Positions 1 through 57,924 are shown, numbered from the stretch's first letter. The stretch: DNA of 58,041 nt from a virus (IMGVR_UViG_3300045996_002471:1-58041), one strand, 5' to 3'. Notes: a model not told the origin generated them from the sequence alone. Translations and numbers: made by a program.

Positions 1-1
1 A

Positions 2-304
2 CAGGGACCGCTGCACATCACCATCGCCTCGACCATCCCGCTCTTCGTGGGCGAAGTTCGGACGGGCATGCGGATCGTGGGCTTGCCCGGTGTGTGGGCC
101 GTCCGCGCCCGGCTACAGCTGCGGCACCGGGTGCTGCTACTCGGGGCCGCGGGTGTCCGGCCGGTGTGGCTGCTGGCACGACATGACCGACCGGTCATGG
201 TCACCGCCGAGTCGGTGCAGGCCGCGGTTGACCGCGGATGCCTGCGTATGGACATCGCGCTCGACCGGGCCCCGTGGCCCGACGGCATCCGCCCTCTTCC
301 CTGA
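2..304 (+). CDS. Hypothetical protein, 5'-truncated at window edge
   Basis: Frame is open from base 2 to TGA at 304; co-oriented with the transfer cluster. Confidence 0.45.
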   Translation, partial: QGPLHITIASTIPLFVGEVRTGMRIVGLPGVWAVRARLQLRHRVLLLGAAGVRPVWLLARHDRPVMVTAESVQAAVDRGCLRMDIALDRAPWPDGIRPLP

Positions 305-333
305 CCTTTCCAGCACAGATGGAAGGACCCGTC

Positions 334-1173
334 ATGTACCCGGGGCCCACCCCCACCGTCCGCCCTCAGCCACCCGAGTTCAAGCTGAGCCGGCTGAAGA
401 AGGTCGCCTACGGCATGTCCGTGACCACCGGTGGCCTCGGCCAGGTGCTGTTCCTCGGCTCCGTCTTCGGTGGCACGGTCCTCTCCTACCTCGCCGCGAC
501 CGGCATGGCCGCGTTCGCGGAGTTCGTCATGGCGGCTTCCGGTGACGCCAGCCTGGACCACCGCGTGCACCACCGGGCATGGAAGCTGATGCTGGTCCTG
601 TCGCTGATCGTCGCCTGCTACGCGGGCGGCAACCAGATCGCGCACTTCTGGCACAACAACAAGGCGCTCGCGGTGATGTTCGCCGGGGCCAGCGTGGCCG
701 GGTTCCTGCTGCACATCCTCGACGGGCACATCCGGGCCGCCGCCTACCTGCGCGAGTTGTCCGCCTGGGAAGCCGCCGAGCGCAAGGCAGCCGCGCCGGT
801 ACAGCCGTCACAGACTGTCCGCGTCCAACCCCCGGTGCCGCGCCCAGAGGCCAAGCCTGTGGCCGTCACGCCCCCGGCTCCTGCCGTCAAACCCTCCGCG
901 GCCGAACCCGCTGCCGCGGTTCCGCAGCCGAGGTCCCTGCCCGCTGCCGACCCGAACAACGTCACCCCGATCACCAAGCACGGCGGGTTGTCGCAGCGTG
1001 AGCAGGCCTACCAGTGGTTCGCCGCGCAGATCGACGCAGCGGGAGGCGACCTGTCCGCCGTGTCCGGGCCCGACATCGCCGCACAGTTCGACTCCGACCA
1101 CCTGAAGAAGAAGATCACCGAATTCAAGCGGCGCTACGAAGCGGAACACCCGCCCGCCGCTGTCAACGACTGA
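334..1173 (+). CDS. Spd-like (DUF2637/SpdA-SpdB2-type) membrane spread protein
   Basis: GAAGGA RBS; about 4 N-terminal TM helices, Pro/Ala linker, C-terminal HTH-like segment (VSGPDIAAQF); lies upstream of traB-like gene. Confidence 0.6.
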   Translation: MYPGPTPTVRPQPPEFKLSRLKKVAYGMSVTTGGLGQVLFLGSVFGGTVLSYLAATGMAAFAEFVMAASGDASLDHRVHHRAWKLMLVLSLIVACYAGGNQIAHFWHNNKALAVMFAGASVAGFLLHILDGHIRAAAYLRELSAWEAAERKAAAPVQPSQTVRVQPPVPRPEAKPVAVTPPAPAVKPSAAEPAAAVPQPRSLPAADPNNVTPITKHGGLSQREQAYQWFAAQIDAAGGDLSAVSGPDIAAQFDSDHLKKKITEFKRRYEAEHPPAAVND

Positions 1174-1207
1174 CCGCCCGGACCAGGGCAAGGAGGAACG
1201 ATCCGTC

Positions 1208-1687
1208 ATGAATGGCGCAGACAGAGTGTGGCTCGGCGCGAACATCGTGGGTGTGGTCCTGCTGGTCTGGGGCGGCCTGCGGGTGTGGAAGAAGAAGCCG
1301 GCGAAGTTGACCACGTGGCTGTGGTTCGGCGCGGGCCTGACCCTCGGGGGCTGGCTCGTCGACAGCCTCCGTGAGCTGATCAAGAAAGCCGCGGCGGGTG
1401 CCAGCCCGGCGGTCGGCATCGGCATCTACTCGATCATCGGCATCACCGGCTGTGCCCTGATCTGGCTGATCCTGCACGAGTTCCCGCTCCGCAAGGGCCG
1501 CGGAGGCGGAGGGCCCGCGGTCGCCGGGGGCGCCGGGACAGCGGGGAAGACCTACATGCCGTACGTCGGCCTGCTCACGCCGGTCCTGCTCCTCACGACC
1601 CCGGGCGTCCTCGGCGACGGTGCCCGCTCGCTCAGCAACCTGCTGGGCAAGCTCGGGGGTCCCCTCGGCACGTTCATCGGGGCGTGA
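1208..1687 (+). CDS. Multi-pass membrane protein (spread/transfer accessory)
   Basis: AAGGAGG RBS; about 4 hydrophobic segments. Confidence 0.7.
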   Translation: MNGADRVWLGANIVGVVLLVWGGLRVWKKKPAKLTTWLWFGAGLTLGGWLVDSLRELIKKAAAGASPAVGIGIYSIIGITGCALIWLILHEFPLRKGRGGGGPAVAGGAGTAGKTYMPYVGLLTPVLLLTTPGVLGDGARSLSNLLGKLGGPLGTFIGA

Positions 1688-1688
1688 C

Positions 1689-2195
1689 ATGGAGATCGTC
1701 CTGCTCTGCCTTCTGGTCGCCTGGTTCCTCGTCTACCGCTGCGTCCAAGACACCGCGACCCTGGCCCGGCGGGGAGCGGCGTGGGTCGCCGACCGGCTCG
1801 GCGCCCCCGAAGTCGCCACGTGGCTGCGCGACCAACCTTCACCCACACAGCCACGGACCTCCGACGGGCAGCGGATACTCGCCGCGCTCGGCGAGGTGGC
1901 GGCCTCCGGGGTGTTGCTGTTGCTGCTGTGGCTGCGGTTGGCCGTGATCGACGCGATCGGCGCTGCCCGTTCCGCCAGCCGCCGCCGCCCGGCGCCGGTC
2001 CCGTGGGAAGGGCTGTGGGCGTGGCTGCTGTGGCTGCTGCGCTGGCTGACCCGCTGGTTCCGGTGGCCCCGCGACGGCGAGCCGCACGCCCCGGTCCGGG
2101 CCACAGCCACCCGCACGGACCGCCCGCCTCCCGCCGCGCTGCCCCCCGGGCAGCCGGTCAGCGTCACCTTCACCTTCACCCACAACAAGGAGTAG
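1689..2195 (+). CDS. Membrane protein of transfer operon
   Basis: ATG 1 nt after the previous stop; hydrophobic N-terminus MEIVLLCLLVAWFLVY; Trp/Arg-rich segment. Confidence 0.6.
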   Translation: MEIVLLCLLVAWFLVYRCVQDTATLARRGAAWVADRLGAPEVATWLRDQPSPTQPRTSDGQRILAALGEVAASGVLLLLLWLRLAVIDAIGAARSASRRRPAPVPWEGLWAWLLWLLRWLTRWFRWPRDGEPHAPVRATATRTDRPPPAALPPGQPVSVTFTFTHNKE

Positions 2196-2197
2196 TC

Positions 2198-2515
2198 GTG
2201 AACGAACTGGAATCCGCGTCGACCACCGTCGCCGCCGGCGAGAACAGCCTGGCCACCTACCTCAGCTTCGGCCAGGGGATGGTCGACGCCTGCGAGCAGG
2301 GCTCCGGCCTCACCGAGACCACGACCGCGAACATGCGCACCAACGACTGGTCCGGCCCGCGCGTCGAGCACTACGAGCGCGGCAAGGAACTGCTCGACCA
2401 GGCCCGTGCCGCGTTCGCCGACGGTGTGACGGCGCTGGAGGAGTCGAAGATCGTCGCCGACGCCTACAACGCCGCGCCGGGCACCGGCAACAAGGAAACC
2501 GCCACCAACCTCTAA
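2198..2515 (+). CDS. 105-aa helical protein with central W-S-G (WXG100-like / TraA-position protein)
   Basis: AAGGAG RBS, GTG start; WSG at residues 51-53; directly upstream of the FtsK-type ATPase. Confidence 0.6.
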   Translation: MNELESASTTVAAGENSLATYLSFGQGMVDACEQGSGLTETTTANMRTNDWSGPRVEHYERGKELLDQARAAFADGVTALEESKIVADAYNAAPGTGNKETATNL

Positions 2516-2521
2516 CCCCTT

Positions 2522-2557
2522 GCCTTGCACCCGGACGGTCTCGTCCGGGTGCAAGGC
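2522..2557 (+). terminator. Perfect 16-bp stem-loop upstream of traB-like gene (terminator/attenuator)
   Basis: GCCTTGCACCCGGACG-gtct-CGTCCGGGTGCAAGGC. Confidence 0.6.
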
Positions 2558-2584
2558 GGCCCGCCCGCCACGGAGGAACCCGTC

Positions 2585-4882
2585 ATGACCGTCCCGCCCA
2601 CCACCGCCCAGGTCGGATCCCAGGTGCTGCCCTACAACGGCGATCTCGCGTCGGTCGAGAAGCGGTTGCGCACCGAGCGGAAGTTGATGCTGCTGCCCGT
2701 GACCGGCGGGGCGGTTACCGTGTGGGCGGGGAGTGGGCTGCACGAGCAGATGCTGGCGGCGCTGGCCGTGGGCGGCCCGGAGATGCTGGCCATCGGGATC
2801 GGCGGGTCGGCGGCGGTGGCGACCGTGTCGACCGTTGTGCTGCTGGCCGCGGCGGCCCGGACGGGCACCGGTGACGCGCTGCCACATGTGGACGGGCACG
2901 TGAAGGGCCAGAAGCTGCTGGCGGTCCGCAGATTGCTGGCGGGTTCCGCGGGTGCGGGTGTGGCGTTGGCGGTCTTCGGCGGGCATCCGCTGATCGTCGG
3001 CGGCTACCTGGTGGCGGCGCTGATGTCCACCGGCCGCTGGCACCTCGAGCGGTTCCGTTCGCTTCGGGTGCTGAAGTCCGCCCGCGCCGAGATCTCACAG
3101 GCGGCGGTGCCCGCGCGGGGCGAGTCGCAGCCGACGGCCGAGGCGGAGGCCGTCGCGCCTGTCGCCCCGGTCGCGCCCGCTGAGATCGCCGAGATCGTGG
3201 AGCGGTGGCGGGTCGGTGTCGCGCCCAAGCACCTGCCGGGTACCTGGTTGACCAACGGGCAGGTTCACGACGAGGGCCGCATGTCGTTCGTGGTCAACTC
3301 CGGCCCGTCGGGTACCACTCTCGCCGCCGCACAGTCCGTGCTGGAGAAGCTTCCCGCAGCGCTGCGGCTGGCGCTGCCCGCGCCGGACGGTGGCGGCGGG
3401 CAGGACATCGTGTTCGACCAGCCCACCACCGGTGAGCTCGCCGACCGCTCACAGCTGCGGGTGCAGATCATCAACCGGTCGAGCAGGGCGGTGCGCGGCA
3501 GCCGGGTCACGCCCGAACTGGTGGTGTCGCCGACCAACCCGGGCGCGGCGCACATCGGCGGCTACGTCGACGATGCGAGCAACACGTGGTGGGACTTCGC
3601 CAGCGACTCCGGCGCCCACTCCGGCTTCGTGCTGGCCGGCACACGGCAGGGCAAGAGTTCGCTGTTCGACAACCTCGCCTACCGTGCCCGCCAGATGGGC
3701 TACCTGATCGCGTTCCTGGATCCGCAGCGCGGCGCGTCGTCTCCGGTGCTCGCGCAGCACGCCGACTTTCCTGTGCTCGGTGCCGAGCACACCCCCGAGT
3801 TCCATGCCTGGCTGGAGGCGGAGGCGGACCTGCGCGAGTCGTGGATGGGGGCCCACGGCCTGGGCAAAATCACCCCCTGGACACAGGCACCGTGTCGCCC
3901 CGGCGGGGAGCGTCCCGACCCTGACTGCCCGTGCGGCGGAGTCGTGCCGCCGGGGATCATGGCGTTCGTCGACGAGTGCGACCAGGTGTTCCGGCAGACC
4001 CTGCCCGGCACTACCACCACCCGGTGGGGTGGACCGTTCGGTGAGCAGGCCAAGCGCATCAACAAGCTCAACATGGGCTTGGTGACCGCCTCTCAGGTCC
4101 CCGAGCAGGCGATCTTCGGCGGCTCGGAGTTGCTGCGGTCCAGCCTGAGTACCCGCAACTTCCTGGCCATGAGGGTCAACGCCAACAGCGGCGCGGGCCT
4201 CATCCCCGGCCTGCCCTTCAACCCTTCGCTGCTGCCCCGCACCCCTGGGCGGGCGTTGATGTGCGGCGCCGAGTCCCGGCAGATGGAGGCCCAGTTGGAC
4301 TTCATGCCGCGCCGAGAGGACGCCGCGAAGCACGCCGGCCCGTACGCGGAGGACCTGTTCGAGCGGCTGCCGCGGGCACGCCAGTGGGCGCCGACCACGG
4401 CGGCTGCCCGCCGGTTGCTGCCCGCGCAGGGCGAGGACACGGCGGGGGTGTCGCGGCAGGCGGCGCGGAAGCGGTTGGCCCGGCTGATGAGCGGCGGGCA
4501 CGCCGAGCCGCGGGTATCGATCGCCGAGACCGTCCCTGCGGTGTCCACCGGGCCGGTGCCCGCCGCCGGCGGGTCGATGATTGCGTGGCCCGCCGCGGTG
4601 GGCGGCCCGGTCGCGGTCGCCGAGCGGCCCGCGACTGCGGGGACGCTGTCGGAGCGGCTGTTGCGTGCGCTGGACGGGCTGCCCGACGACCGGTGGGTGA
4701 CGATGGGCGACCTCGCCAAGCGCCTGGGTCGGGTCGCCGAGGACGCCGACACCCCCGAGGTGAAGGTGGCCGCGGCGTCGCTGGTGGCCGATCTGGCGGT
4801 CGAGGACGTCATGCTTCCCGGTCGACGCCGGACCGCGGGCATGTCCGCCACGGTCGGTCAGATCCGCGCGGTCCTGCAATGA
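2585..4882 (+). CDS. traB: TraB-like FtsK/SpoIIIE DNA translocase
   Basis: GGAGG RBS; N-terminal TM helices; Walker A AGTRQGKS; Walker B IMAFVDE; FtsK-type VTASQ.P..AIFGG...LR motif; C-terminal winged-helix-like segment. Confidence 0.8.
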   Translation: MTVPPTTAQVGSQVLPYNGDLASVEKRLRTERKLMLLPVTGGAVTVWAGSGLHEQMLAALAVGGPEMLAIGIGGSAAVATVSTVVLLAAAARTGTGDALPHVDGHVKGQKLLAVRRLLAGSAGAGVALAVFGGHPLIVGGYLVAALMSTGRWHLERFRSLRVLKSARAEISQAAVPARGESQPTAEAEAVAPVAPVAPAEIAEIVERWRVGVAPKHLPGTWLTNGQVHDEGRMSFVVNSGPSGTTLAAAQSVLEKLPAALRLALPAPDGGGGQDIVFDQPTTGELADRSQLRVQIINRSSRAVRGSRVTPELVVSPTNPGAAHIGGYVDDASNTWWDFASDSGAHSGFVLAGTRQGKSSLFDNLAYRARQMGYLIAFLDPQRGASSPVLAQHADFPVLGAEHTPEFHAWLEAEADLRESWMGAHGLGKITPWTQAPCRPGGERPDPDCPCGGVVPPGIMAFVDECDQVFRQTLPGTTTTRWGGPFGEQAKRINKLNMGLVTASQVPEQAIFGGSELLRSSLSTRNFLAMRVNANSGAGLIPGLPFNPSLLPRTPGRALMCGAESRQMEAQLDFMPRREDAAKHAGPYAEDLFERLPRARQWAPTTAAARRLLPAQGEDTAGVSRQAARKRLARLMSGGHAEPRVSIAETVPAVSTGPVPAAGGSMIAWPAAVGGPVAVAERPATAGTLSERLLRALDGLPDDRWVTMGDLAKRLGRVAEDADTPEVKVAAASLVADLAVEDVMLPGRRRTAGMSATVGQIRAVLQ

Positions 4883-4901
4883 CATCACCCTCGGTGACGG
4901 A

Positions 4902-4931
4902 AAGCCCTGTCCGGATCGTCGGGCAGGGCTT
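4902..4931 (+). terminator. Stem-loop after traB
   Basis: AAGCCCTGTCCG...CGGGCAGGGCTT. Confidence 0.6.
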
Positions 4932-4938
4932 CTCGCTT

Positions 4939-5107
4939 GGCCATGCAAGCTTGCATCGACCCATGCATTTTCGGCCATGCAAGCTTGCATCCCAATGCAA
5001 GGGTCGATGCAAGCTTGCATGGCCCATGACCTGCGAAAATGCAAGGTCGGGCGGGGTATGCAAGGGGTACCCTTGCATCTCGCCCAGTGGGCCGTTTTCG
5101 CAGGTCA
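4939..5107. repeat. Palindromic ATGCAAGCTTGCAT array with nested inverted repeats
   Basis: 14-bp palindrome at 4943, 4977, 5007; perfect 24-bp IR 4939-4962/5001-5024; half-sites at 4995, 5039, 5058, 5072; 13-bp IR TGACCTGCGAAAA/TTTTCGCAGGTCA near 5027/5095. Confidence 0.9.
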
Positions 5108-5222
5108 GGGGCCTGTGTGCACGGATTCCCACCGTCACGCCGGCCCCCATGCATTCGTCGTCCTCGCGGGGCCGCCGCCCGTTCGCGGGGTCATCACCCA
5201 CTGTCACAGATCGGAGTCAGCA

Positions 5223-5693
5223 GTGACCGACTCGACCGCCCTGCTCCTCGTGCTCGCCGCCGTTGCGTACGGGGTGTGGCACTGGCGCAACCGCTACACC
5301 GCGCCCGCCGCGCCGGGCGGACAGCTCGACACCGCGGAGTTGCGTGAGTTGGACATCGCGCTGGTGCGCTGCGAGCACCCCGACCATCACCCGGAGATGG
5401 TGCCGTTCGCGCCGGTCCGCTACCGGCACGCCCACGAGGACGTCCGCCAGCTCAGCCTCGACGGATGGGGAGCGACCGAGCGGATGAACACGTGCCGGGT
5501 GCACAACACCGCCGGCTGGGTCGGGGATCTGCACGTGCAGTGCTCGCAGCCCGGCTGCCAGACCCACCACCTGATCCCCGTAGCCGATCCCGAGGTGGGG
5601 ATGAGGGATCTGCGGAACCGGGGATGGTGCAACGTCGGGGACCGGGTGGTGTGTCCCTACTGCGCCGGTACCCGCTCCCGCGTCTGGCGCTGA
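5223..5693 (+). CDS. Membrane-anchored Cys/His-rich (Zn-binding) protein
   Basis: GGAG RBS + GTG; N-terminal TM; CEHPDHH, CRVH, CSQPGC, CPYC. Confidence 0.6.
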   Translation: MTDSTALLLVLAAVAYGVWHWRNRYTAPAAPGGQLDTAELRELDIALVRCEHPDHHPEMVPFAPVRYRHAHEDVRQLSLDGWGATERMNTCRVHNTAGWVGDLHVQCSQPGCQTHHLIPVADPEVGMRDLRNRGWCNVGDRVVCPYCAGTRSRVWR

Positions 5694-5842
5694 TCCCCGA
5701 TCCCCAGGGGAGTGCGGATCCCCACCTGCGATCCCCATCCGAGGTCCCCGCCGATCCCCACCTCGAACCCGCCCGCCGATCCCCACCGGCCCGCGGTCCC
5801 CACACCCCCGGTACCCACGTCGATCCCCAGGAGGTGGTCCCC

Positions 5843-6571
5843 GTGATGGGACGTACCCACGCCCTCACCGGCCTGTGCGCCGGCCTCGCCCTCGCGCCCG
5901 TCATGGCCGCGACGTTCGCGCAGTCGGTGCTGGTCGCGGTCGTGACCGCCGGATATGCACTGCTCCCGGACCTGGACCATCCCGGCGCCCGTGCCTCGCG
6001 CCTGCTCGGGCCGGTGACCGGGTTGCTGTCGCGGGCGGCCAGGGCGGGGAGCCGCTGGCTGTACGCGCGCACGAAAGGTCCCCGCGACGAACGCCACCGT
6101 GGGGAGCACCGGCACGCCACCCACACCGTCGCGTTCGCGGTGCTGGCGGGGATCGTGGCGGCGGCGGGTACCTGGGGAGCGGGGGCGTGGGTGGCGGCGG
6201 GGATCACCCTGCTGGGGACCCTGTTGGCGGTCGACGCGCTCGGGGACTGGCTGCTCCCCGTGGTGGGGATCGCGGGGATCGCGTGGTGGGGAGCGGCCGG
6301 CGGGGATGTCCTCGGGGAGTTGGCGGGGATCGGTCCGGCGTTGGGGATCGCGGTGGCGGTGGGGTGCGTGACGCACTGCCTCGGGGATGCGGTGACCCTG
6401 TCGGGGTGTCCGTTCCTGTGGCCGCTGCTGATCGCCGGGGAGACGTGGTACGAGCTGCGGCCGCCGCGGTGGTTGCGGTTCCGGACGGGCGGGGCGGTGG
6501 AGACGCGGGCGGTGTTCCCGGGGTTCGTGGTCTTAGCTGGGGCGTTGGCCCTCAACCTGCCACTGGGGTGA
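5843..6571 (+). CDS. Metal-dependent membrane hydrolase (YdjM-like)
   Basis: MGRTHALTG, LLPDLDHP, HRxxTHT, HCLGDAVTxSGCP motifs; AGGAGG RBS. Confidence 0.85.
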   Translation: MMGRTHALTGLCAGLALAPVMAATFAQSVLVAVVTAGYALLPDLDHPGARASRLLGPVTGLLSRAARAGSRWLYARTKGPRDERHRGEHRHATHTVAFAVLAGIVAAAGTWGAGAWVAAGITLLGTLLAVDALGDWLLPVVGIAGIAWWGAAGGDVLGELAGIGPALGIAVAVGCVTHCLGDAVTLSGCPFLWPLLIAGETWYELRPPRWLRFRTGGAVETRAVFPGFVVLAGALALNLPLG

Positions 6572-6580
6572 CTCGTCGAC

Positions 6581-6617
6581 ACGAGGGCCCCGCGCCAGAC
6601 TGGTGCGGGGCCCTCGT
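6581..6617. terminator. Bidirectional terminator between convergent genes
   Basis: ACGAGGGCCCCGCGCCAG/CTGGTGCGGGGCCCTCGT. Confidence 0.75.
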
Positions 6618-6630
6618 CGTGCATGGGGGA

Positions 6631-7203
6631 TCAGTTCCCGAAGGCGATCAGGTGCTTGTACTCGCTGCCCACCCAGAGGGCCGCAGCGTGGTCCGTGTCG
6701 GTCAGCGCCTTGCGGTTCGACTCGGGGACCAGGTGGGCATCGCCGTGACGGAAGAGGTTGAGCAGGGCGGCGTCGACGTCGTCGACGTGGAAGCGGGCGA
6801 CCTCGTCGTGGTCGCGGATCTTGACCAGGCTGACCCAGTCCTGACCCTTGACAGCCAGGTTGAGGTAGGCGAGGTGGATGCCGGTTTCGACGTCGGTGAA
6901 CTGGCGCCCGGCGGCGGCGTCGTCCTCTTGGAAGAAGCCGTCTTCGATGGCCAGTAAGTGGTTGGCTTCGCCGCCGACCCAGAGGGCCGCGTCGTGGTCG
7001 TCCTGGGTCAACACCTTGCGGTTGGAGTCGGGGGCGAGGTGGACGTAGCCGGTCTGGACCATGGCGAGGAGCATCTCGTTCTGGGCCGCGGGGTCGGAAC
7101 TCAGCATGGGGCGGAGCTTGGCGAGGCGAACCCAGTCCTGCGGTTTCCGGCTGAGGTCGTCGTATGCGGCGACGATCTCGTCTTGGATCGAGTTGTAGTT
7201 CAC
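6631..7203 (-). CDS. Hypothetical protein made of two similar ~85-aa domains
   Basis: Repeated DWVxLxKxR...HLxPxSNRKxLTxxDHxAALWVG..xHLxA; GGAGG RBS. Confidence 0.8.
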   Translation of the reverse strand: MNYNSIQDEIVAAYDDLSRKPQDWVRLAKLRPMLSSDPAAQNEMLLAMVQTGYVHLAPDSNRKVLTQDDHDAALWVGGEANHLLAIEDGFFQEDDAAAGRQFTDVETGIHLAYLNLAVKGQDWVSLVKIRDHDEVARFHVDDVDAALLNLFRHGDAHLVPESNRKALTDTDHAAALWVGSEYKHLIAFGN

Positions 7204-8257: not shown

Positions 8258-9156
8258 CCGCCGTGGACCACAAGCCGCTGCACGAAGACGTCCCGACCGA
8301 GCACGCCTGGGTAACGGGTCGCAGGATCTACGTGCGGACCCCCAAAGACTCCGCGCTCAACCAGCAGCTGGTCGAGCTGGGCGCGAAGTGGGACCGGGAG
8401 GTCCGTGCCCGCTGGGTCGGTACCGGCAAACGGAACCGGGTCCTGCCGCTGGTACTGGCCGACGAGCGGCGCGAGCAGGCCGAGAAGCAGGCAGCGGCCG
8501 CGGTACTGGCCGCCGGTCGGTGGGTGCAGCTGCCGCGCAACGTCGACGGGGTGGTCACCGCCATGCATCAGCGCGCGGGCCGGTTGGGCGCGGTGTGGGA
8601 CGCCGAAAGCCGGCGATACGCGCTGCCCAGCGACGACGCCCGCGACCGACTCCAGCGACAGTTGGACACCTGGCTGGCCGAGCAGCAGGCCGACCGGGAG
8701 CGCACCGAAGCGCAGCGGCAGGCACGACGGCGCGCCGAGGCCGAGCAGGTCGAGCGGGAACTGGCCGAGGTGCGGCAGGTCGAGGCCGACCGTGCCCGTC
8801 GCCGCATCGAGCGGGCCGTCGCCGACAGTGGACGCACCGCAACCGGTGAGACGGTGACGGTGCGCCGCTACGACGAGCGGTACATGAACCGTGCGGGCGC
8901 CGAGCAGGTCGCCTGGCAGGTCGGCACGGTGCGCCGCCTCGCCGACGGCCGCCGCGGGCTGGTCGTCGACCGGCACATCCGGTTCTGGTCCGAGGACGAC
9001 GCCACCGAGTACTCCCACGAGGTCCAGTTGCCCGACAACGCGCACTGGGCGTTCACCTACACCCTCGCGGTGATCGAGCCCACCGATGACGAGCGGCAAG
9101 CCGACACGCTCGGCGCTCACTCCCAACCCCGCGACACCGCGGGAGGTATCTCGTGA
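8254..9156 (+). CDS. Protein with two DUF5710-like (LGAxWD) repeats and coiled coil
   Basis: LGAKWDREVRARW and LGAVWDAESRRY; ATGA overlap. Confidence 0.6.
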   Translation: MTAVDHKPLHEDVPTEHAWVTGRRIYVRTPKDSALNQQLVELGAKWDREVRARWVGTGKRNRVLPLVLADERREQAEKQAAAAVLAAGRWVQLPRNVDGVVTAMHQRAGRLGAVWDAESRRYALPSDDARDRLQRQLDTWLAEQQADRERTEAQRQARRRAEAEQVERELAEVRQVEADRARRRIERAVADSGRTATGETVTVRRYDERYMNRAGAEQVAWQVGTVRRLADGRRGLVVDRHIRFWSEDDATEYSHEVQLPDNAHWAFTYTLAVIEPTDDERQADTLGAHSQPRDTAGGIS

Positions 9157-9419: not shown

Positions 9420-10379
9420 TCAGGGGCGAACCAGGGCGGTGTCACCGTCCATCTCCGTGGACGCCGGCTGCCCCAGCACCATGCACTGCAGGTCCACGTC
9501 CTGCTGCAGGATCGGCGGCCGGCCGAACAGCAGCGCGCCGACCGCGACCAGGAACACGCGGGTGACCGCGTCGCTGCCCTTCTTGTACCGGGGGGCTTGG
9601 TAGAGCAGGTAGCGGGCCTGCTGCCATGCCGTCAGCCGCGCCAGCGGGGCCAGCTCGCCCGCGCCGGCCAGCAGGGTCAGGGCGATGTTGAACATCGTGT
9701 CAGCGTCGTCGGGGTCGGCGGTGACCACGTACATCAGCTCGCCGCCGTCCTCCAGGCGGGAGGTGTCCCGGCCCCGCGCGGCGGTTCGGGCCAGCAGCGC
9801 GTCGGCGATCCCGCGGGCCGCACCGCGGCGGACGATCCGGTTGCCGGTGATCGTGCGGCCGGCCGAGTTCATCCGCACCACGTTCTCCAACACGTCCTCG
9901 GTGGACGCCTCGCGGTCGAAGCGGGACTTCGCGGCCGCGCCGTAGTCGGCCATCACCTGGTAGGCGTGGGTCCAGCGCCCGTTCTGGTACGTGCGAGTGG
10001 CGGCGTCCCATTCCGGCTTGACCTTCAGCCTGCCGATGTCGCCGATGCGGTCGTAGTTCGGGCCGCCGTCGCGCAGTGTCGTCGTGAACCGGGCCACGTC
10101 CAGTGGCAGGCCCTCGCCGAGGCGGCGGGGGGTTTGCAGGGCGAGGCCTCGCCGCCATGCCGTCGCCTCGGCGTGCAGGCCGCGCAGCAGCGTGAGCCGC
10201 CGCAGCTGGTCGGAACCTGACCACTCCGGGGCGAGCCGCAGGCGGAGGGTCTCTGCGGTCTCGGCCTGCCGGTCGGCGAACGTGGCGATGCGGGCGATCT
10301 CGTCGGGGTCGTCGGTGCGCAACGCCAGGTGCGGGGTGGGGAAGCTGTCGGCGGTGATGAGGGCGGTGGTGGCGGTCAT
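9420..10379 (-). CDS. Fido (Fic/AvrB-like) domain protein with non-canonical motif
   Basis: YQAPRYKKGSDAVTR at the position of HPFxDGNGRxxR, followed by P...DVDL. Confidence 0.5.
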   Translation of the reverse strand: MTATTALITADSFPTPHLALRTDDPDEIARIATFADRQAETAETLRLRLAPEWSGSDQLRRLTLLRGLHAEATAWRRGLALQTPRRLGEGLPLDVARFTTTLRDGGPNYDRIGDIGRLKVKPEWDAATRTYQNGRWTHAYQVMADYGAAAKSRFDREASTEDVLENVVRMNSAGRTITGNRIVRRGAARGIADALLARTAARGRDTSRLEDGGELMYVVTADPDDADTMFNIALTLLAGAGELAPLARLTAWQQARYLLYQAPRYKKGSDAVTRVFLVAVGALLFGRPPILQQDVDLQCMVLGQPASTEMDGDTALVRP

Positions 10380-13199: not shown

Positions 13200-13454
13200 T
13201 CAGGCGTTGGTGCGGGCCCGGGTGCGGGCGTTGCGGCGCTTGAGGGCGCGACGCTCGTCTTCGGTCATGCCGCCGTAGATCCCAGAGTCGAGCCCGCGGT
13301 CGAGCGCCTCGGCTAAGCAAGCCGTAAGCACCGGGCAGCGTCGGCAGACAGCTTTCGCCTCCTCCGCCTGAATCACCGCGGGCCCAGAGTTGCCCACCGG
13401 GAACCAAAGCTCGGGATCTTCGTCCTTGCACAGAGCCGCATGTCGCCAGTCCAT
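13200..13454 (-). CDS. whiB: WhiB-family Fe-S transcriptional regulator
   Basis: DWRHAALC..EDPELWFP..AKAVCRRCPV...C; GIYGGMTEDER. Confidence 0.95.
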   Translation of the reverse strand: MDWRHAALCKDEDPELWFPVGNSGPAVIQAEEAKAVCRRCPVLTACLAEALDRGLDSGIYGGMTEDERRALKRRNARTRARTNA

Positions 13455-18375: not shown

Positions 18376-19097
18376 TCAGGCCGCGGCGGCGGCGTGCAGG
18401 TGGGCGAGCAGGGCGGCGCCGATGTGCTCGGCGTAGAGCGGAGGGATCGCTTCCGAGAGGCCGTTCCCGGTCATCCAGTCGATGCCCATCGCCTCCGGGC
18501 CCACGTACGTGCCGATGTCCCCAGTCACGGAGGCGTGATAGCCCTGGTTCCACAGCTCGCGGCGCCGGCTGTGTGCGGTCCGGACCACGTGCTTGGGGTG
18601 CGCGGGGGCTACGAGCGAGAGGCCGGGCGAGGGTTCGAACCTGCGGTGCCGGTAGGTGCGCAGGCCGAACATCCCGCCGCACAGAACGATGGAGCGCTCC
18701 TTGTCGAGCGGGGCTTCCATCACGTTCTCGATGACCCACGGCATGTCGTAGGTCGACATCAGCTCACGGCCGGGGGTGACCAGGTCGGGCTTGTCCGACC
18801 AGAGCGTGCCTTTCTTGAACCCCTGGCAGGGCCACGAGGCGTGCACGGCGTCGAAGGACTCGACGAACGTCCGGTCGCGCAGTACCTCCATGGCGTCCGC
18901 CTGGATGAACACGCCTCCGCGGTGGCGGGCTGCGGCTCGATGTCGACGGCGGTCACGTCGAACCCGGCCCGGCGGTATCCCTCGGAGGCGCCGCCCTGCT
19001 TGGAGCAGAGGTCCAGCAGGCGGGGCCGGGTCAACCGCGGCGGGTTGGGGTGTGGCTGTCTGCCTCCGGGCAGTCGGGGCTCCGTGGGTGCCGTCAT
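18376..19097 (-). pseudogene. Short C5-cytosine DNA methyltransferase, frameshifted at ~18928
   Basis: Motif I LLDLCSKQGG and DIEPQP in one frame; FIQAD, SWPCQ, IENV, RHRRF, EAIPP in another; one extra base restores the ORF. Confidence 0.8.
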
Positions 19098-20215
19098 GAC
19101 GCGACCCGCTCGGCGCGGAAGTTGGGCAACTGGCGCACAAGGTGTTCTTTGAGCAGGTGCACGTCCTGCGGGGTGTTCTGGATGCCGTCCCAGCGGCGGC
19201 GCTCCTCGTCGATGACCCATGTGCGGCCGGCGGTCCAGGCGCAGTAGGCGGCCAGGGTGTTCAGCTGGACACGCAGCCGGTCGCGATCGATGCCAGCGGC
19301 GGGGGTGTCCTCGGTGATGTGGTCCATGACGAAGCCGAGGGCTTGGATTCCGGCGCCGTGGGTGAGCCGGGACTTGCGGGGCGGGAGTTCCCACTGGTCG
19401 GCCCATACCTCGGCGACCGCCGACCAGAAGGCGTCGAGGTGCGCGGTGATTGCGTCGAGGTCGCCCATGCCGGTGGCGGGGTCCCGGTACTGGTAGAGGG
19501 CTCCGTCGGTGAGGCTGTTGCGGATCATGCGCAGGACGGCGGTGCCGGTGATGTAGCCGTCCGGGCAGGTGGTGGTGCGGATGCGGCCGGCGAACGCGTG
19601 GCTGGCGGTGTTGAGCCGTGCCACGACCGCCGCGGGCAGGCGCCGGGCGGCCATCGCGGGGGGCAGGGTGGCGTCGACACCGGGCAGCAGCTCGTTGACC
19701 AGTCCGGCCGGGAGCGGCTTGGTGTTGTTCACCAGCAGGAACTGTGAGCGCTGCTCCTCCTCGGATTCCGCGGTGAACCCGACCACGGCGACCGCGAACG
19801 GGCCGGTCAGGGACGCGTCGCGCAGGGCGGCGGCGCGCTGCTGGCCGTCGACGATCCACGCGGGGCGTTCGTGTTCGGGCTGGTCGGAGTCGACCGGGAT
19901 GACCAGCTCGCCCGGGACGGCATAGTCGACGGGGCTGGGCACCAGCAGCGGTTCGAACCGGACGCGTTGGTCGAAGGCGACGACGATCGCGTTGGGCAGC
20001 ATGGCGCCGTGGCGTTCGAGGTAGCGGCGGATCCCGCGGATGTGGGCGAGGGCCTCCGGGCGCTGGTAGCCGCGGAGTTCCTGGTCGGTGTCGCGGTGGA
20101 CGCGGGACACAGCGGCGAAGGTGTGCAGCTGGGGGCCGTCGACGGCGAAACTGACGACCCGGCGGCCGCCTTGGACGAGTTGGAGCGCGGGGAGGCGGAG
20201 GACGTGTGCGGTCAT
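19094..20215 (-). CDS. dpdB: DGQHR-domain protein, DpdB/DndB-like
   Basis: GYQRP, MLPNAIVVAF, WIVDGQQR, QFLLVNNTKPL, SRLTHGAGI. Confidence 0.75.
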   Translation of the reverse strand: MTAHVLRLPALQLVQGGRRVVSFAVDGPQLHTFAAVSRVHRDTDQELRGYQRPEALAHIRGIRRYLERHGAMLPNAIVVAFDQRVRFEPLLVPSPVDYAVPGELVIPVDSDQPEHERPAWIVDGQQRAAALRDASLTGPFAVAVVGFTAESEEEQRSQFLLVNNTKPLPAGLVNELLPGVDATLPPAMAARRLPAAVVARLNTASHAFAGRIRTTTCPDGYITGTAVLRMIRNSLTDGALYQYRDPATGMGDLDAITAHLDAFWSAVAEVWADQWELPPRKSRLTHGAGIQALGFVMDHITEDTPAAGIDRDRLRVQLNTLAAYCAWTAGRTWVIDEERRRWDGIQNTPQDVHLLKEHLVRQLPNFRAERVAS

Positions 20216-23901: not shown

Positions 23902-24827
23902 CGCTGTCCGCCTTCGATCTCGCGCAGCACCGCTTCGGAGCCGACATAGGAAGCGCCGTCGTGGAAGCCGCCCGCGTTGCCGATCCCGGTCGGGGCCCAG
24001 CCTTCGCCGACGAAGCCGCGCGCCTGGCTGATGGTCAGCGGCTTGTGTGACGGCCCGGCCGCGTGGCCGCCCTCGTCCGTTGTGAGCCACTGGGCGAGGG
24101 CTTCGGCGGTGGGGAACACCGGCGAGACGGGAGAGCCCTCGGAGACGGTCTCCCACAACTGCCAGCCGTCACCGGTGGGCGGCTTGACCGGTTCCCACGC
24201 TTCGGCCTCGGCGCGCTGGCCTTCGTACGCTTCGAGGCTGCCGTGACCATCGCAGGTCGCGCAGGTGTCGCGCACACCCTCGCGTTCGCAGCGAGCCCGG
24301 ATCACCACACCCGCGTTGATGCCGTCGTGACCGAAACCGTGCAGCGCCCACTCGTTGACCTGTACGGCGGTCGGGACGACCGGCGGGTCGATCCGCTGCC
24401 AGCGCGTCTCCGGGGTGAACGTGTGGGTGAAGTCGTAGAGGCGGTCGGCGGCGACCAGTGCGTCCACGTCCTCTTGAGAGAGGTGCTTGGACCACTGCCC
24501 GTTCCACAGGTCGGCCAGCCGCTGCGCCTCCCGAACAATGGCGCGCTCACCGGAGCCGTAGAAGTCGGGTGCCCGGGTGACGTTGCGCTCGGCGAACGCC
24601 CGCACCGCCGGGGTGTCGTGCCGTAGCGGTGTCGAACCGGTGGTCGCCGGGTCGAACGGGATGTAGCCGTACCAGAGGTCGTGCAGGTGCTTCGCCTGCG
24701 GTGAGTACCCGTTGTCACAGTCGGGGCACGGCTTCTCGTGGAACCGCTCGGGGGTGAGGTAGCCCTCCCAGGTCTTGCGGAGCGGCCAGTCGAAGTCGAG
24801 CGGCACTCGGCGAACTTCGCGGCTCAT
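23898..24827 (-). CDS. Conserved phage protein with split DnaJ-type Zn finger
   Basis: REVRRVPLDFDWPL; CPDCDNGY; CATCDGHG; GWQLWETVSEGSP. Confidence 0.75.
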   Translation of the reverse strand: MSREVRRVPLDFDWPLRKTWEGYLTPERFHEKPCPDCDNGYSPQAKHLHDLWYGYIPFDPATTGSTPLRHDTPAVRAFAERNVTRAPDFYGSGERAIVREAQRLADLWNGQWSKHLSQEDVDALVAADRLYDFTHTFTPETRWQRIDPPVVPTAVQVNEWALHGFGHDGINAGVVIRARCEREGVRDTCATCDGHGSLEAYEGQRAEAEAWEPVKPPTGDGWQLWETVSEGSPVSPVFPTAEALAQWLTTDEGGHAAGPSHKPLTISQARGFVGEGWAPTGIGNAGGFHDGASYVGSEAVLREIEGGQR

Positions 24828-25123
24828 CGGGTCCTCCGGGTGAGGCGGGAGACGCTGCGGGCCGCACGGGCACGCAGCGAAAGACGGGTGACGGGGCGGG
24901 TCTGTGCGAGCAGGGCGACCGCCTGCTCGGTGTCGACCAGCACGGCCATCGGCTCGGCGTCGACCTCGCGACGCCACGCCCACAGCAGCCCGTTCAGCTC
25001 GTCGTCGACCAGCACCTCGGCGGCCGGGATGACACGGCCGCCGAGGGCGTCCAGCAGGGCGTCGTCGGCGCAGAGGTTGGCGAGGTCGTCGGGCGTGGCC
25101 GTGTCGACCACATCGGCGGTCAC
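24824..25123 (-). CDS. RsdA-like anti-sigma (sigma-binding) domain protein
   Basis: DLANLCADDALLDALGG...DELNGLLWAWRREVD. Confidence 0.55.
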   Translation of the reverse strand: MTADVVDTATPDDLANLCADDALLDALGGRVIPAAEVLVDDELNGLLWAWRREVDAEPMAVLVDTEQAVALLAQTRPVTRLSLRARAARSVSRLTRRTR

Positions 25124-33834: not shown

Positions 33835-34169
33835 GGCGGCGGTCCCTCTCGGCGGCGTCGTCGGCGTCGTCTGCGGGTCGCGCAGGCGGAGGAAGATATT
33901 TACCTCATCAAGCGCTTCTGTGCGTGTCAGTAGGTGACTCGCCCGGTTCGTCACAATGGCGTAGCCGGTTCACTGTCCTGGCTCAACTCTGGTTCATGTG
34001 CTCTACCCCGAGTGGCGGCATCCTGTCCGGTTTCCGCCCGTTTGCCGCGTAACCTTTGCGCCGTCCGGAGCGTTAACCGCTGTAGTGCGGCCCCGTTCGT
34101 GATCGATACCGACACGTTCCGGAACCCGCCGGCCACCCGCCCGGCCCGCAGATCCGCCGCCCCGCGCGG

Positions 34170-34421
34170 CCATGCCCTACCCGCGCTTTACACGCAGACG
34201 CTTCGTCCACAATGGTGTCTACGCACGAGCAAGCCAGGCCTGTTTTCCCAGCCCAGGCGCACAGGCGCAGTCACTCCCACACGGGCGTGGACACGCTGTC
34301 ATATACATCCTGATTCCATGTTACTTACGAAGAAGGTCCGACAAAGAGGCAGCTCAGAGCCATAGTGCTCCCGCAGTCGGGGCGTTAAGGTGGATGAAGC
34401 CATGCTTTACCCATGCTTAAC
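34170..34421. other. Candidate attP
   Basis: Tandem 11-bp arm-type repeats CCATGCCCTAC/CCGCGCTTTAC (34170-34191) and CCATGCTTTAC/CCATGCTTAAC (34400-34421) flanking an AT-rich core (~34296-34331) upstream of int. Confidence 0.55.
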
Positions 34422-34435
34422 CCTTGGAGGTCGCC

Positions 34436-35653
34436 GTGGGACGCCCACCCCTCGCACTCGGTGAGTGCGGCTCCATCCGCACCTTCGGCCACCTCGGCGG
34501 CCGATGGATCGCCAAGGCCAACCTGCCCGACGGCGCGAAGCCCGAGAAGTGGCGGGCGGTCGCGAACTACCGCGGCTACGACGGCGTCACCGCGCCGATC
34601 GAACGCCACGGCCGCACCGAGACGAAAGCCAAGTCGGCGCTCAACGCCGAAGTCCGCGACCGCGCTGGCAAGCGCTCCGCGCTGTCCGGCTACTCCAAGT
34701 TCAGCGAGTTCGCCGACGTGTGGCTCGCCGACGCCGAGGAACGCTGCGCGCCGACCACGATGGTCCACTACCGGCTGAACCTCACCAAGCACGTCCTGCC
34801 GCACCTCGGCGAACTCCGCATCAGCGAAGTGCGCGTCGCGCTGCTCGAAGAGTACTTCCGCGCGCTGCGCGCCACCCTCGCGCCGACCACCCGACGCCGG
34901 GTCCGCAGCGTCGTCAAGCAGGTCATGGACGTGCCCGTCCGGCGCGACATCATCGACCACAACCCGGTCACGGCGGTCAGCGCCATCACCGGGTCCACGG
35001 CGATGCCGCCGCGCGCCCTGTCTTCCGACGAACTGCTCGAGTTGCTCGCGCTTGTCGACGCCGACCGTGGAGCCCGCCGCGCGGACCTGCCGGACCTGCT
35101 GCGCGTCATGCTCGGCACCGGTATGCGTGTGGGTGAGGCGTGCGGGCTGCGCTGGTGCGACATCATCATGGGTCCGACGCCCGAGGACAGCCTCGTCCAG
35201 GTCACAGGCAACGCCGTGTTCGTGCCGCGGGTCGGGGTGCTCCGGCACAGCGGTAAGACGTTCGCCGCACGGCGCAACATCGGGATGCCCGCGTTCCTGC
35301 ACACGCTGCTCGCGGTGCGGCGCCCGGAGGACGCGCTTGACACCGATCCGGTGTTCCCGAACAGCATGGGCGGCATGAAGAACCCGCAGACGTTCCAGAA
35401 CGCTCTGGTCCGGTTCAGGCGGCGTGTCTCCCCCGAAGGCGACGAGCAGCGGTGGGAGTGGTTGGTGTCGCACGCCCTGCGTAAGACGACGGCGACGCAA
35501 CTGGACGAGGGCGGGGCGACGGCGCGTGAGATCGCAGACCTGCTGGGACATGTGGACCCGTCGATGACGCAGCGCGTGTACCTCGGGCGGGGGATGCCCA
35601 GTGCCCGTGTCGGCCGGATGTTGGACGCGGCGCACCGCAAACCTGAGGTGTGA
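34436..35653 (+). CDS. int: Tyrosine integrase
   Basis: TGMRVGEACGLRW; K; SHALRKT; LLGH; TQRVY; GGAGG RBS + GTG. Confidence 0.95.
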   Translation: MGRPPLALGECGSIRTFGHLGGRWIAKANLPDGAKPEKWRAVANYRGYDGVTAPIERHGRTETKAKSALNAEVRDRAGKRSALSGYSKFSEFADVWLADAEERCAPTTMVHYRLNLTKHVLPHLGELRISEVRVALLEEYFRALRATLAPTTRRRVRSVVKQVMDVPVRRDIIDHNPVTAVSAITGSTAMPPRALSSDELLELLALVDADRGARRADLPDLLRVMLGTGMRVGEACGLRWCDIIMGPTPEDSLVQVTGNAVFVPRVGVLRHSGKTFAARRNIGMPAFLHTLLAVRRPEDALDTDPVFPNSMGGMKNPQTFQNALVRFRRRVSPEGDEQRWEWLVSHALRKTTATQLDEGGATAREIADLLGHVDPSMTQRVYLGRGMPSARVGRMLDAAHRKPEV

Positions 35654-36823: not shown

Positions 36824-37222
36824 CTACAGGCGGCGCGGGTAGTCCGTGCCCGCGGACGCACCCGCACCGGCCGGCGTGAGGTCGGCAGCCGGTGGCACCG
36901 GGGCCACGACTACCGGCCGCACCAACAGCCCGGTCAGCACGAGCTCGATGACCACCATGAACGATCCTTGCACCTCGGGCGCCAGGGACCAGCCGAAAGC
37001 GAGACCGATCGCGATGGCGGCCTTGAAGAAACCGACCAGTGCGGCGACGAGCCGCTCGCCCTTCAGTGCCCAGGCGGTGATGACGCCGAGCACGGCGGCG
37101 GCGCCAGCGTTGAGGTAGCCCTGCTGGTCGACCGTCAGCGGCAGCACGGCCGACGAGATGAGAGCGATGAGCCCGGAGGCCAGGGCGAGCCAGTAGGCGG
37201 GCTCGCGACCGAAGACACGCAT
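36824..37222 (-). CDS. Holin
   Basis: MRVFGREPA; 4 TM; follows endolysin. Confidence 0.8.
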   Translation of the reverse strand: MRVFGREPAYWLALASGLIALISSAVLPLTVDQQGYLNAGAAAVLGVITAWALKGERLVAALVGFFKAAIAIGLAFGWSLAPEVQGSFMVVIELVLTGLLVRPVVVAPVPPAADLTPAGAGASAGTDYPRRL

Positions 37223-57309: not shown

Positions 57310-57924
57310 CTACCCTGCCGCGACCCGCGACCGGCGGTCCATCCGGGTCACCGTGCCGCCTGTGGCCGGCTCGGCAGGAGCAGCGGGGGACGTGCCGCCC
57401 TGCTGCTGCGGTGCCTCATCGAACGCCACCGTCCACCGCAACCTGGCCATGGCCAGCGGCGTGAGCCCGAGCCGGTCGGCGTACTGGCGCGCTTCCTTGC
57501 CCGCGTCGAGGTCACCGGAGGCGGCGAGCACCATCCACCGCGTGTACAGCGCAACCTCTTCCAACCAGCCCGATGCCTGCCACTCCACAGCCTGCGGGGT
57601 CCGCCACAGCTTCTCCCACAACGCCAGCTCACGCTCCGTCTGGCCGTCGAGCACCAACCGCAGCGTGGCGACCTTCTCCTCCGCGCGGACCAACTGGACC
57701 TCAGCCACCGGCGCGCCCTCGGCCCGCTTGTCCTCCAACGCCACCAACCGCCCCTCGGCGACCTGCAGCTTGGCCTGCGTGTGCAGATCCGGACCGAGCG
57801 GCCACTCAGGCGTGTCGCCTTGGCGGCCAATGGACGGAAGCTGAGTCAGGCCCGGCTGCTTGTTACGCCGAACCCGCTGGTCAGGATCCTTCGGCAACCT
57901 GCCTGCCATCTGCGTGCGGATCAT
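57310..57924 (-). CDS. terS: Terminase small subunit
   Basis: RVRRNK; W..LWRTPQAVEW; E.R...DRLGLTP.AMARLRW. Confidence 0.85.
   Translation of the reverse strand: MIRTQMAGRLPKDPDQRVRRNKQPGLTQLPSIGRQGDTPEWPLGPDLHTQAKLQVAEGRLVALEDKRAEGAPVAEVQLVRAEEKVATLRLVLDGQTERELALWEKLWRTPQAVEWQASGWLEEVALYTRWMVLAASGDLDAGKEARQYADRLGLTPLAMARLRWTVAFDEAPQQQGGTSPAAPAEPATGGTVTRMDRRSRVAAG

Follow-up and report, generated by a model that had tools for sequence, protein, structure and literature searches.

We analysed a stretch of 58,041 bp (hereafter the window), the whole of virus record IMGVR_UViG_3300045996_002471 in IMG/VR, and find that its left 6.6 kb is a plus-strand operon of genes g01-g08 (47-6571), in which a gene for an FtsK-like ATPase (g06) is followed by a dense array of short repeats. 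In Streptomyces, TraB and its clt site transfer double-stranded DNA and Spd proteins serve its spreading. With a confidence slightly better than even, we read the operon as a conserved accessory module of a temperate siphophage family of Pseudonocardiaceae-type actinomycetes that would encode a DNA pump of this TraB/clt type. By analogy, we infer that g06 binds the array, that its substrate is DNA and not protein, and that it acts in transfer. We propose that the C-terminal winged helix of g06 would dock on a TGCA-core array 60 bp downstream of its own gene, that the motor would then drive the circular phage genome, either excised or replicating, through the membrane or the septal cross-walls, and that the co-transcribed membrane proteins g02-g04 and g07, together with the hydrolase g08, would assist. 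The outcome would be virion-free spread between hyphal compartments or mating hyphae, alongside ordinary infection.

The module is conserved within phage genomes. A search for related loci returned eight viral and three genomic loci, and the g02-g08 block is syntenic in the chromosomal contig L005 and in the following four records:

G001: 57.5 kb, in prophage order (xis-side genes first, integrase last); module at 18.3-24.0 kb, TerL at 34.4 kb
G002: 65 kb, labelled provirus; module at 20.5-26.5 kb, TerL at 40.2 kb, integrase at 63.3-64.5 kb
G003: 60.5 kb, terminal repeats, CheckV 100; module across the record's end-join, TerL at 48.6-50.2 kb
G004: 84 kb, terminal repeats; lysis genes beside the module, HK97 capsid gene (E 1e-51)

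The ATPase g06 and the repeats that follow it

The central part of the module consists of the following features:

2525-4882 (+): g06, putative membrane-anchored FtsK/TraB-like P-loop translocase with a predicted C-terminal winged helix
4898-4935 (+): G+C-rich hairpin directly after the g06 stop, 13-bp core stem at 4902-4931, terminator-like without a T run
4943-5078 (no strand): clt-like array of ten ATGCAAG half-sites, arranged as three perfect palindromes ATGCAAGCTTGCAT, three single sites and one spaced inverted pair
5021-5113 (no strand): conserved inverted repeat inside the array, arms 5021-5039 and 5095-5113, core ACCTGCGAAAA at 5029 (+) and 5095 (-)

The g06 product has 785 amino acids (aa) when read from the TTG at 2525, or 765 aa in the database form that starts at the ATG at 2585, and carries Walker A (AGTRQGKS) and Walker B (FVDECDQ) motifs. 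Its AlphaFold model, built with an alignment of homologues, has a mean predicted local distance difference test (pLDDT) score of 79.4 and a single P-loop domain. Using Foldseek, we find that the best matches are the FtsK motor (6t8o, 2iut, 2ius) and TcpA of plasmid pCW3, with E of about 1e-10 and template modelling (TM) scores by target of 0.60-0.68; EccC/EssC, HerA and VirB4 are further matches, and 51 matches in all reach E<=0.001. Hydropathy places transmembrane-like segments at residues 76-106 and 146-164, and the model has long helices over residues 21-173. These results confirm the preliminary description of the window, made from the sequence alone, in its call of an FtsK-type ATPase with N-terminal transmembrane segments. 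For the C-terminal winged helix of that description, a fitting topology is predicted: at pLDDT 89, the last 85 aa would run helix-strand-helix-helix-hairpin-helix. Clusters of FtsK/SpoIIIE are also among the ESM Atlas neighbours of g06. We take g06 to be a membrane-anchored, probably hexameric translocase of double-stranded DNA of the FtsK/TraB type.

The family to which g06 belongs is largely unannotated. A word-indexed search identified 31 homologues at 40-100% identity, all unnamed or "hypothetical", and the named sources are Saccharothrix, Actinosynnema, Lentzea and one "Streptomyces sp.". BLAST against phages, as DNA and as protein (tblastn), gave no match for window 1-7000 or for g06, and sequence searches of the PDB with g06, single or as a profile, gave nothing useful. 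A profile search of 1.84 billion representatives identified 383 relatives (cluster representatives) at E<=1e-3. Among 62 distant relatives, picked for family scans from 150 listed, 23 have a C-terminal helix-turn-helix or winged-helix family, six have a weak PF01580 match (21-24 bits, one reaching the cut-off) and two match FtsK_gamma (35.6 bits, over the cut-off, and 29.9 bits).

Separately, the family has an insertion of its own (residues 424-450 of the 765-aa form; window ~3854-3934), which lies between the two Walker motifs and in which H424, C437, C448 and C450 (...C-P-C...) are invariant in 31 of 31 aligned homologues. This insertion may be a metal site. To our knowledge, it is not a familiar feature of FtsK or TraB.

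The second line of evidence is the array, which begins 60 bases after the g06 stop. All ten copies of ATGCAAG in the window fall within 136 bp (4943-5078), where 2.07 copies would be expected in the whole window and none of 100 shuffles reaches ten; similarly, the array has three perfect 14-bp palindromes against an expectation of 0.02. The repeats that the preliminary description had placed after the ATPase are therefore present, and their function as a clt would follow by analogy. The arms of the inverted repeat are 19 nt long and 95% complementary, and its core 11-mer, ACCTGCGAAAA, occurs twice in the window, both times in the inverted repeat (0.01 expected). The same 11-mer is found at the same place in the relatives, with two copies each in L005, L011 (the G004 locus; both inverted pairs) and G003 (both on one strand), and one exact copy each in G001 and G002. 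The hairpin between gene and array folds at -30.9 kcal/mol (z -3.43), and none of 200 shuffles is as good; comparable hairpins can be seen by eye at this position in the relatives, and a consensus terminator scan did not call the one in the window.

In five relatives, the g06-g07 intergenic slot has a common layout of hairpin, repeats, conserved inverted repeat and more repeats, and each has its own TGCA-core word. For each word we counted the copies in the slot out of all copies in the DNA available for that relative:

L005: word CTGCAAAG, 6 of 6 copies in the slot
L011 (G004): word CTGCAACA, 8 of 8 copies in the slot
G001: word TGCAAGG, 5 of 6 copies in the slot
G003: word CTGCAAC, 6 of 16 copies in the slot
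G002: word CATGCA, 7 of 19 copies in the slot

The copies are arranged as two oppositely oriented blocks in L005, G003 and G004. A layout that stays the same while its word changes would be expected of a site that gives the accompanying winged helix its specificity. The clt of pIJ101 is likewise an inverted repeat with short direct repeats, according to an excerpt of PMC3583192.

Two further observations concern DNA words near g06 and its homologues. In the C-terminal domain (window 4625-4879, compared with L008, L010, L005 and L011), one residue of the predicted recognition helix tracks the base that follows TGCAA: Lys where that base is G (window, G001), Arg where it is C (G003, G004) and Gln where it is A (L005). 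The pattern holds in five of five TGCAA-core sequences, representing about three independent lineages; G002, with Arg and the word ATGCA[TCG], has no simple fit to it. Elsewhere, the conserved 11-mer of the array's inverted repeat, ACCTGCGRAAA, occurs three times within 250 bp (L007 1630-1876) on a Saccharomonospora contig, where a distant homologue of g06 follows 8 kb downstream, and twice, at 9836 and 26354, on L032 (the Amycolatopsis plasmid pAS20800). A conserved factor may recognise this 11-mer.

The module as part of a temperate siphophage

The other genes of the module are:

47-304 (+): g01, small soluble protein of 85 aa from the GTG at 47, the module's first gene in the record
319-1173 (+): g02, membrane protein with four transmembrane-like segments by hydropathy, a Pro/Ala-rich linker and a soluble C-terminal domain
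1208-1687 (+): g03, small membrane protein with three transmembrane-like segments (hydropathy; syntenic homologues)
1689-2195 (+): g04, small membrane protein with two transmembrane-like segments (hydropathy; syntenic homologues)
2198-2515 (+): g05, soluble protein of 105 aa, family unassigned (syntenic homologues)
5223-5693 (+): g07, one N-terminal transmembrane-like segment and a Cys/His-rich C-terminal part (syntenic homologues)
5834-6571 (+): g08, YdjM-family membrane-bound metal-dependent hydrolase (PF04307, E 7e-21; phrog_20744, E 3e-44)

The membrane genes g02, g03, g04 and g07 share one strand and are tightly spaced. Scans of Pfam, PHROGs, NCBIfam and PADLOC gave nothing for g01-g07, g01 being without a family match in the first three, and a consensus promoter scan called none. 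In G001 and G003, the gene immediately before the g02 homologue encodes a g01 homologue of 87-91 aa, which aligns with window 179-307 in the same frame. Homologues of g02 are found in five related elements and on pAS20800; the G002 homologue matches DUF2637 (E 1.6e-40) and the G001 homologue does so weakly. We found no functional study of DUF2637 in the literature searched. As an aside, g05 lies just upstream of the ATPase gene and has a W-S-G tripeptide, which recalls the WXG100 proteins beside EccC-type ATPases; it has no Pfam match.

The rest of the window encodes a complete temperate siphophage. The record has a G+C content of ~70%, a CheckV completeness of 97 and 89 genes (called by codon usage), and is classed "linear", end repeats being absent. 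PHROGs and Pfam identify virion, lysis, integrase and recombination modules, of which the main landmarks are:

36824-57924 (-): lysis and virion module (PHROGs; Terminase_7 for g89)
57310-57924 (-): TerS (PHROGs / Pfam)
55626-57305 (-): TerL (PHROGs)
43641-47468 (-): tape measure (PHROGs / Pfam)
36824-37222 (-): holin (PHROGs / Pfam)
34424-35653 (+): tyrosine integrase (phrog_1, E 1e-47; PF00589)
33955-34423 (no strand): attP-containing interval; the cut ends of G001 and G002 fall between their g58/xis and integrase homologues

The minus-strand virion genes run in the order TerS, TerL, portal, protease, major capsid, connectors, major tail, chaperones, tape measure, tail proteins, lysins and holin. 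The early region, also on the minus strand, extends from 32851 down to 9420 and includes excisionase-like, Cro-like, RecE/RecT, exonuclease, primase/polymerase-like, methyltransferase, RuvC and WhiB genes. Genes in the 6.6-14 kb part of the window have homologues in related prophages or plasmids, so that the contiguity of the module with an intact phage, as first described, is confirmed. The attP is placed in 33955-34423 because the G001 and G002 records open with xis-side genes and close with the integrase. This interval agrees with the internal attP put forward earlier at 34.2-34.4 kb, while the exact site is still a candidate; no tRNA was found in the interval.

The relatives show that the module is not simply DNA flanking a phage. 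In G001 and G002 it lies inside the record, at a distance of 18-26 kb from the ends, and in G003 it crosses the end-join. TerL is present along with the module in all three of these records; TerL (phrog_9) was not found in G004 or pAS20800. The order at the junction, RuvC, WhiB, g23, g10 and then g08 to g02, is the same in G001 at 56-82% protein identity. Because this junction between module and early region recurs in an independent record, an assembly chimera is excluded. Among these phages, identity is ~29-35% for TerL, 45-65% for g06 and 72-78% for g08, the best-conserved gene of the block; with g06 and g08 above TerL, the module is better conserved than the virion genes. Each record has one integrase place when the window integrase is used as query. 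These comparisons support the view that the module belongs to the phage genome itself and is conserved there, and that it is not flanking DNA, a separate actinomycete integrative and conjugative element (AICE) or a chimera.

Homologues of module genes are also found on a plasmid, and plasmid-type regulators are found near the module in relatives. The genes g02, g06, g08 and g13 have distant homologues that lie together on pAS20800, a plasmid with ParAB and a MobF relaxase; the 50 kb of annotation read (1-50 kb) lists plasmid genes only and no virion genes, and an HK97 capsid was not found. A GntR+UTRA regulator lies near the module in G001, G002 and G004 and is absent from the scanned region of G003. 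The G004 regulator is transcribed divergently from the first gene of the operon, an HTH_17 gene; korA/tra in pIJ101 and pZL12.80 and the tra operon in pZL12 are arranged alike. The pZL12 tra operon also includes a NUDIX gene, whose product shares 46-51% identity with those of the NUDIX genes that adjoin the module in G002, L006 and pAS20800. In place of GntR, a DUF6879 protein paired with an HTH_31/DUF5753 regulator is encoded near the module at two chromosomal loci, L005 4560-5938 and L006 650-2019, and at pAS20800 1778-3185.

Other features of the window stand apart from the module. The gene g09 (6631-7203, -) encodes two tandem copies of a ~90-aa domain without family matches, and a homologue of single-copy length, lying between module and TerS in provirus G002, matches both of its halves. 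The gene g13 (9420-10379, -; 319 aa, family unassigned) has 42-46% identity to genes in G002 and pAS20800, and on the plasmid its homologue is directly upstream of the YdjM hydrolase gene. The early region includes the WhiB gene (13200-13454), a DndB-like gene (19094-20215, -; PF14072, E 6e-25) and a gene for a small protein with the sigma-binding region of the anti-sigma-D factor RsdA (24824-25123, -; PF16751). ARAGORN called a 97-nt tRNA-Arg(CCG) at 8907-9003 (+) inside the coding region of g12; an Rfam scan of the window gave no tRNA and no other family, and the call is probably false.

Evidence against a transfer role and alternative explanations

Several observations weigh against a TraB/clt-type pump. 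Even at E<=10, Pfam has no family for g06 except a weak MarR_2 match (E 0.056), PF01580 being absent, and PHROGs, NCBIfam and PADLOC have no match. Sequence links from g06 to authentic Tra proteins are weak: hhalign gives a probability of 20% (E 1.1e-3) with pIJ101 Tra and 27% with pZL12 Tra. The pIJ101 alignment is nevertheless collinear over Walker A, DPQ/DPK, Walker B and TQxP, a point in favour of the pump. When the C-terminal domain is searched alone, winged helices head the Foldseek list, but with E of 0.12 at best and none reaching 0.001; for want of a significant match to this domain, a specific likeness of g06 to FtsK-gamma is not established. The label "Spd-like", given to the membrane genes before the ATPase in the preliminary description, holds by topology and position only and not by homology, since g02 has no similarity to pIJ101 SpdB, the sole Spd protein compared (best E 0.36); pIJ101 SpdA, SpdB and KilB themselves have no Pfam family. 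In the available part of PMC4447253, SpdB2 has four transmembrane helices and phiC31 encodes a homologue of it. An equation of DUF2637 with SpdB2 was dropped; phiC31 gave no DUF2637 match.

The module and the record may also be incomplete. "Complete-looking" was too strong a term, as the GntR/UTRA (TraR/KorA-like) and NUDIX genes of some relatives were not found among the scanned window genes (those for the virion, at 40.3-57.3 kb, being scanned by PHROGs alone) and the record begins 46 bp upstream of g01. Its right end is 117 bp upstream of TerS, and neither terminal repeats nor a terminal overlap were found in it. Relatives hold 8-13 kb between module and TerS, so the window record may lack DNA at its ends; either DNA is missing there or the phage may have a compact, divergent control region. 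Five open frames cross a hypothetical end-join, which is uninformative in DNA of 70% G+C. Finally, the array could be an operator or promoter region, since it is largely made of palindromes and lies between a terminator-like hairpin and the g07 start.

The last point leads to one of the alternatives, in which some other regulator binds the array, which would serve g07-g08 as operator or promoter or else be an origin or iteron set, and the ATPase serves exclusion, defence or envelope remodelling. Three perfect 14-bp palindromes are typical of operators of dimeric repressors, their place between hairpin and g07 start is suitable, and PMC4447253 reports that the GntR-type TraR of pSVH1 binds repeats upstream of spdB3. 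However, Pfam and NCBIfam identify no regulator gene in the window's module and PADLOC no defence system, the copies in L005, G003 and G004 are opposed blocks of direct repeats and not operator palindromes, and the word differs between relatives while g06 is the only protein with a DNA-binding domain that always accompanies the array. We consider this explanation unlikely. Only a shade less unlikely, in our judgement, is a segregation device, in which a SpoIIIE/FtsK-like g06 reads the array as a centromere-like site and clears or delivers phage or prophage DNA across closing septa, for example into spore compartments; this would secure vertical inheritance or compartment-wide lytic infection and not transfer to other cells. 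The anatomy of such a device is the same as that of a transfer pump, an ESM Atlas structural neighbour that covers g06 in full length (residues 49-765) is a SpoIIIE cluster (TM-score 0.52), no ParA or ParB was found in Pfam scans of window 1-40.3 kb, and segregation is the role proposed for the FtsK-like ORF63 of phage P1312 by its authors, in the part of PMC4569894 available. Against it, the phage integrates, as its tyrosine integrase and its relatives in prophage form indicate, and a copy that is integrated can do without a segregation device; in addition, the membrane proteins of the operon, with the GntR control and NUDIX genes of relatives, mirror plasmid tra operons.

Two further alternatives are far less probable. 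A type VII-style system, with an EccC/EssC-like ATPase exporting the small g05 protein, would fit the EccC/EssC domains among the structural matches (E 4e-8 to 1e-4) and a g05 protein of ~100 aa that is helical by composition and has a W-S-G tripeptide. Yet g06 has a single P-loop domain, where EccC/EssC have two or three in tandem, and a predicted C-terminal winged helix of DNA-binding type; FtsK and TcpA outscore EccC in the structure search, g05 has no WXG100 match in Pfam (E<=0.01), and the dedicated DNA repeat array would be left unexplained. We regard protein export as very improbable. Least probable of all is an artefact, that is, a 1-6.6 kb segment that is an assembly chimera, a separate AICE or a piece of host DNA abutting the phage. 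It is true that the linear record has no terminal repeats and that the module sits right at one end of it, and public data gave no reads spanning the junctions: four sequencing runs gave short metagenome contigs of relatives only, none of them across the record ends or 6.6-13 kb, the best DNA run matched 0.27 of the window's words, and no RNA runs were listed. But the gene order from RuvC to g02 recurs in the independent G001, the module is internal in two relatives and spans the end-join of the terminally repeated G003, and every record has a single integrase place; the chimera or separate left-hand AICE that the preliminary description had named as its refuting case was not found.

Should the pump act on the phage genome, adsorption would not be needed for temperate actinophages to pass between hyphae and strains; they could so escape receptor-based resistance, and the boundary between prophage and AICE would be blurred. 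This would bear on host range, the spread of lysogens and gene flow in antibiotic-producing actinomycetes. The pairing of a variable repeat word with a variable winged helix is in itself a tractable system for asking how FtsK-type pumps read DNA. More tentatively, and with a likelihood that we place somewhat short of even, these phages may be an integrating siphophage family with two routes, virions and a receptor-independent, TraB-like pump that would read a phage-specific address array and drive the excised genome into adjacent hyphae or compartments, the address possibly being a simple recognition code (Lys/G, Arg/C, Gln/A).

Comparison with known systems

Phages with FtsK-like genes have been described before, and the preliminary description overstated the novelty of the combination. 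Zhong et al. 2010 (J Bacteriol 192:3747) reportedly describe the Streptomyces plasmid-phage pZL12 / phage ZL12, and this element is a published precedent for an FtsK-like tra operon beside virion genes. Like the window with its Tra-like module, pZL12 (GenBank record GQ919031) is a tailed-phage genome with a tra operon. In pZL12 the operon lies next to the head and packaging genes and has a divergent GntR+UTRA regulator, small and membrane proteins, a NUDIX hydrolase and an FtsK-like Tra of ~725 aa without a Pfam match. In contrast, pZL12 is a 90-kb circular plasmid-prophage with ParA/ParB, whereas the window phage has a tyrosine integrase and a central attP zone, and ParAB was not found in it. 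This integrase and a prophage-ordered relative labelled provirus (G002) indicate that the window phage integrates and is not a phage-plasmid of the pZL12 type. The Tra protein pZL12.71c is barely alignable with g06 (27% in hhalign, no blastp match), and by eye we saw no comparable repeat array after its gene.

Isolated actinophages with sequenced virion genomes, Streptomyces phage Hiyaa (gp102) and Thermobifida phage P1312 (ORF63), also encode FtsK-like ATPases of ~700 aa like g06, and in Hiyaa the gene is 2 kb from that of a DUF2637-like membrane protein, gp98. The function of these FtsK-like genes is one of annotation only, DNA segregation being what the P1312 authors propose for ORF63 in the available part of PMC4569894. 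Hiyaa gp102 has no detectable sequence relation to g06 (hhalign 0.4%, no tblastn match), a further point against the TraB/clt reading. A search of the literature for phage FtsK found no functional study.

TcpA of Clostridium perfringens pCW3 is a membrane-anchored conjugation ATPase of the FtsK superfamily and the second-best structural match of g06 (E 1.1e-10, TM-score by target 0.62). TcpA acts within a multi-protein Tcp apparatus with a relaxase. Unlike pCW3, the window shows neither a relaxase nor Tcp genes in Pfam and NCBIfam scans.

The TraB/clt systems of Streptomyces conjugative plasmids and AICEs (pSVH1, pIJ101 and pSAM2 type) share with the module a membrane anchor, an FtsK-type motor and small membrane proteins, and with the module's relatives GntR control; their C-terminal winged helix and the short repeats near the gene that it recognises have predicted counterparts in the module (PMC4447253). 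The Tra protein of pIJ101 and g06 have the same weak C-terminal MarR_2 signal, but pIJ101 Tra matches PF01580 (38.8 bits) and g06 does not; pZL12 Tra and Hiyaa gp102, like g06, have no match to this family at E<=0.001. PF01580 (FtsK_SpoIIIE) is the criterion of published AICE surveys, according to an excerpt of PMC3218068, and surveys of AICEs and conjugation that rely on it would miss the g06 family. The His/Cys insertion distinguishes g06 from TraB/Tra, and the repeats of the window differ from clt in being 7-mers, partly palindromic, with a TGCA core. Plasmids and AICEs make no virions, whereas the window element has a full virion and lysis module beside its integrase and Tra-like gene and is for this reason a phage and not an AICE. 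Our literature search, made in a limited paper collection, found no account of integrating prophages that, as a family, combine a TraB-like pump with a cognate array. What is new relative to these systems is the combination of an integrating phage, as opposed to a plasmid-phage, with a very divergent and previously unrecognised TraB-like family and a TGCA-core array that includes a conserved inverted repeat.

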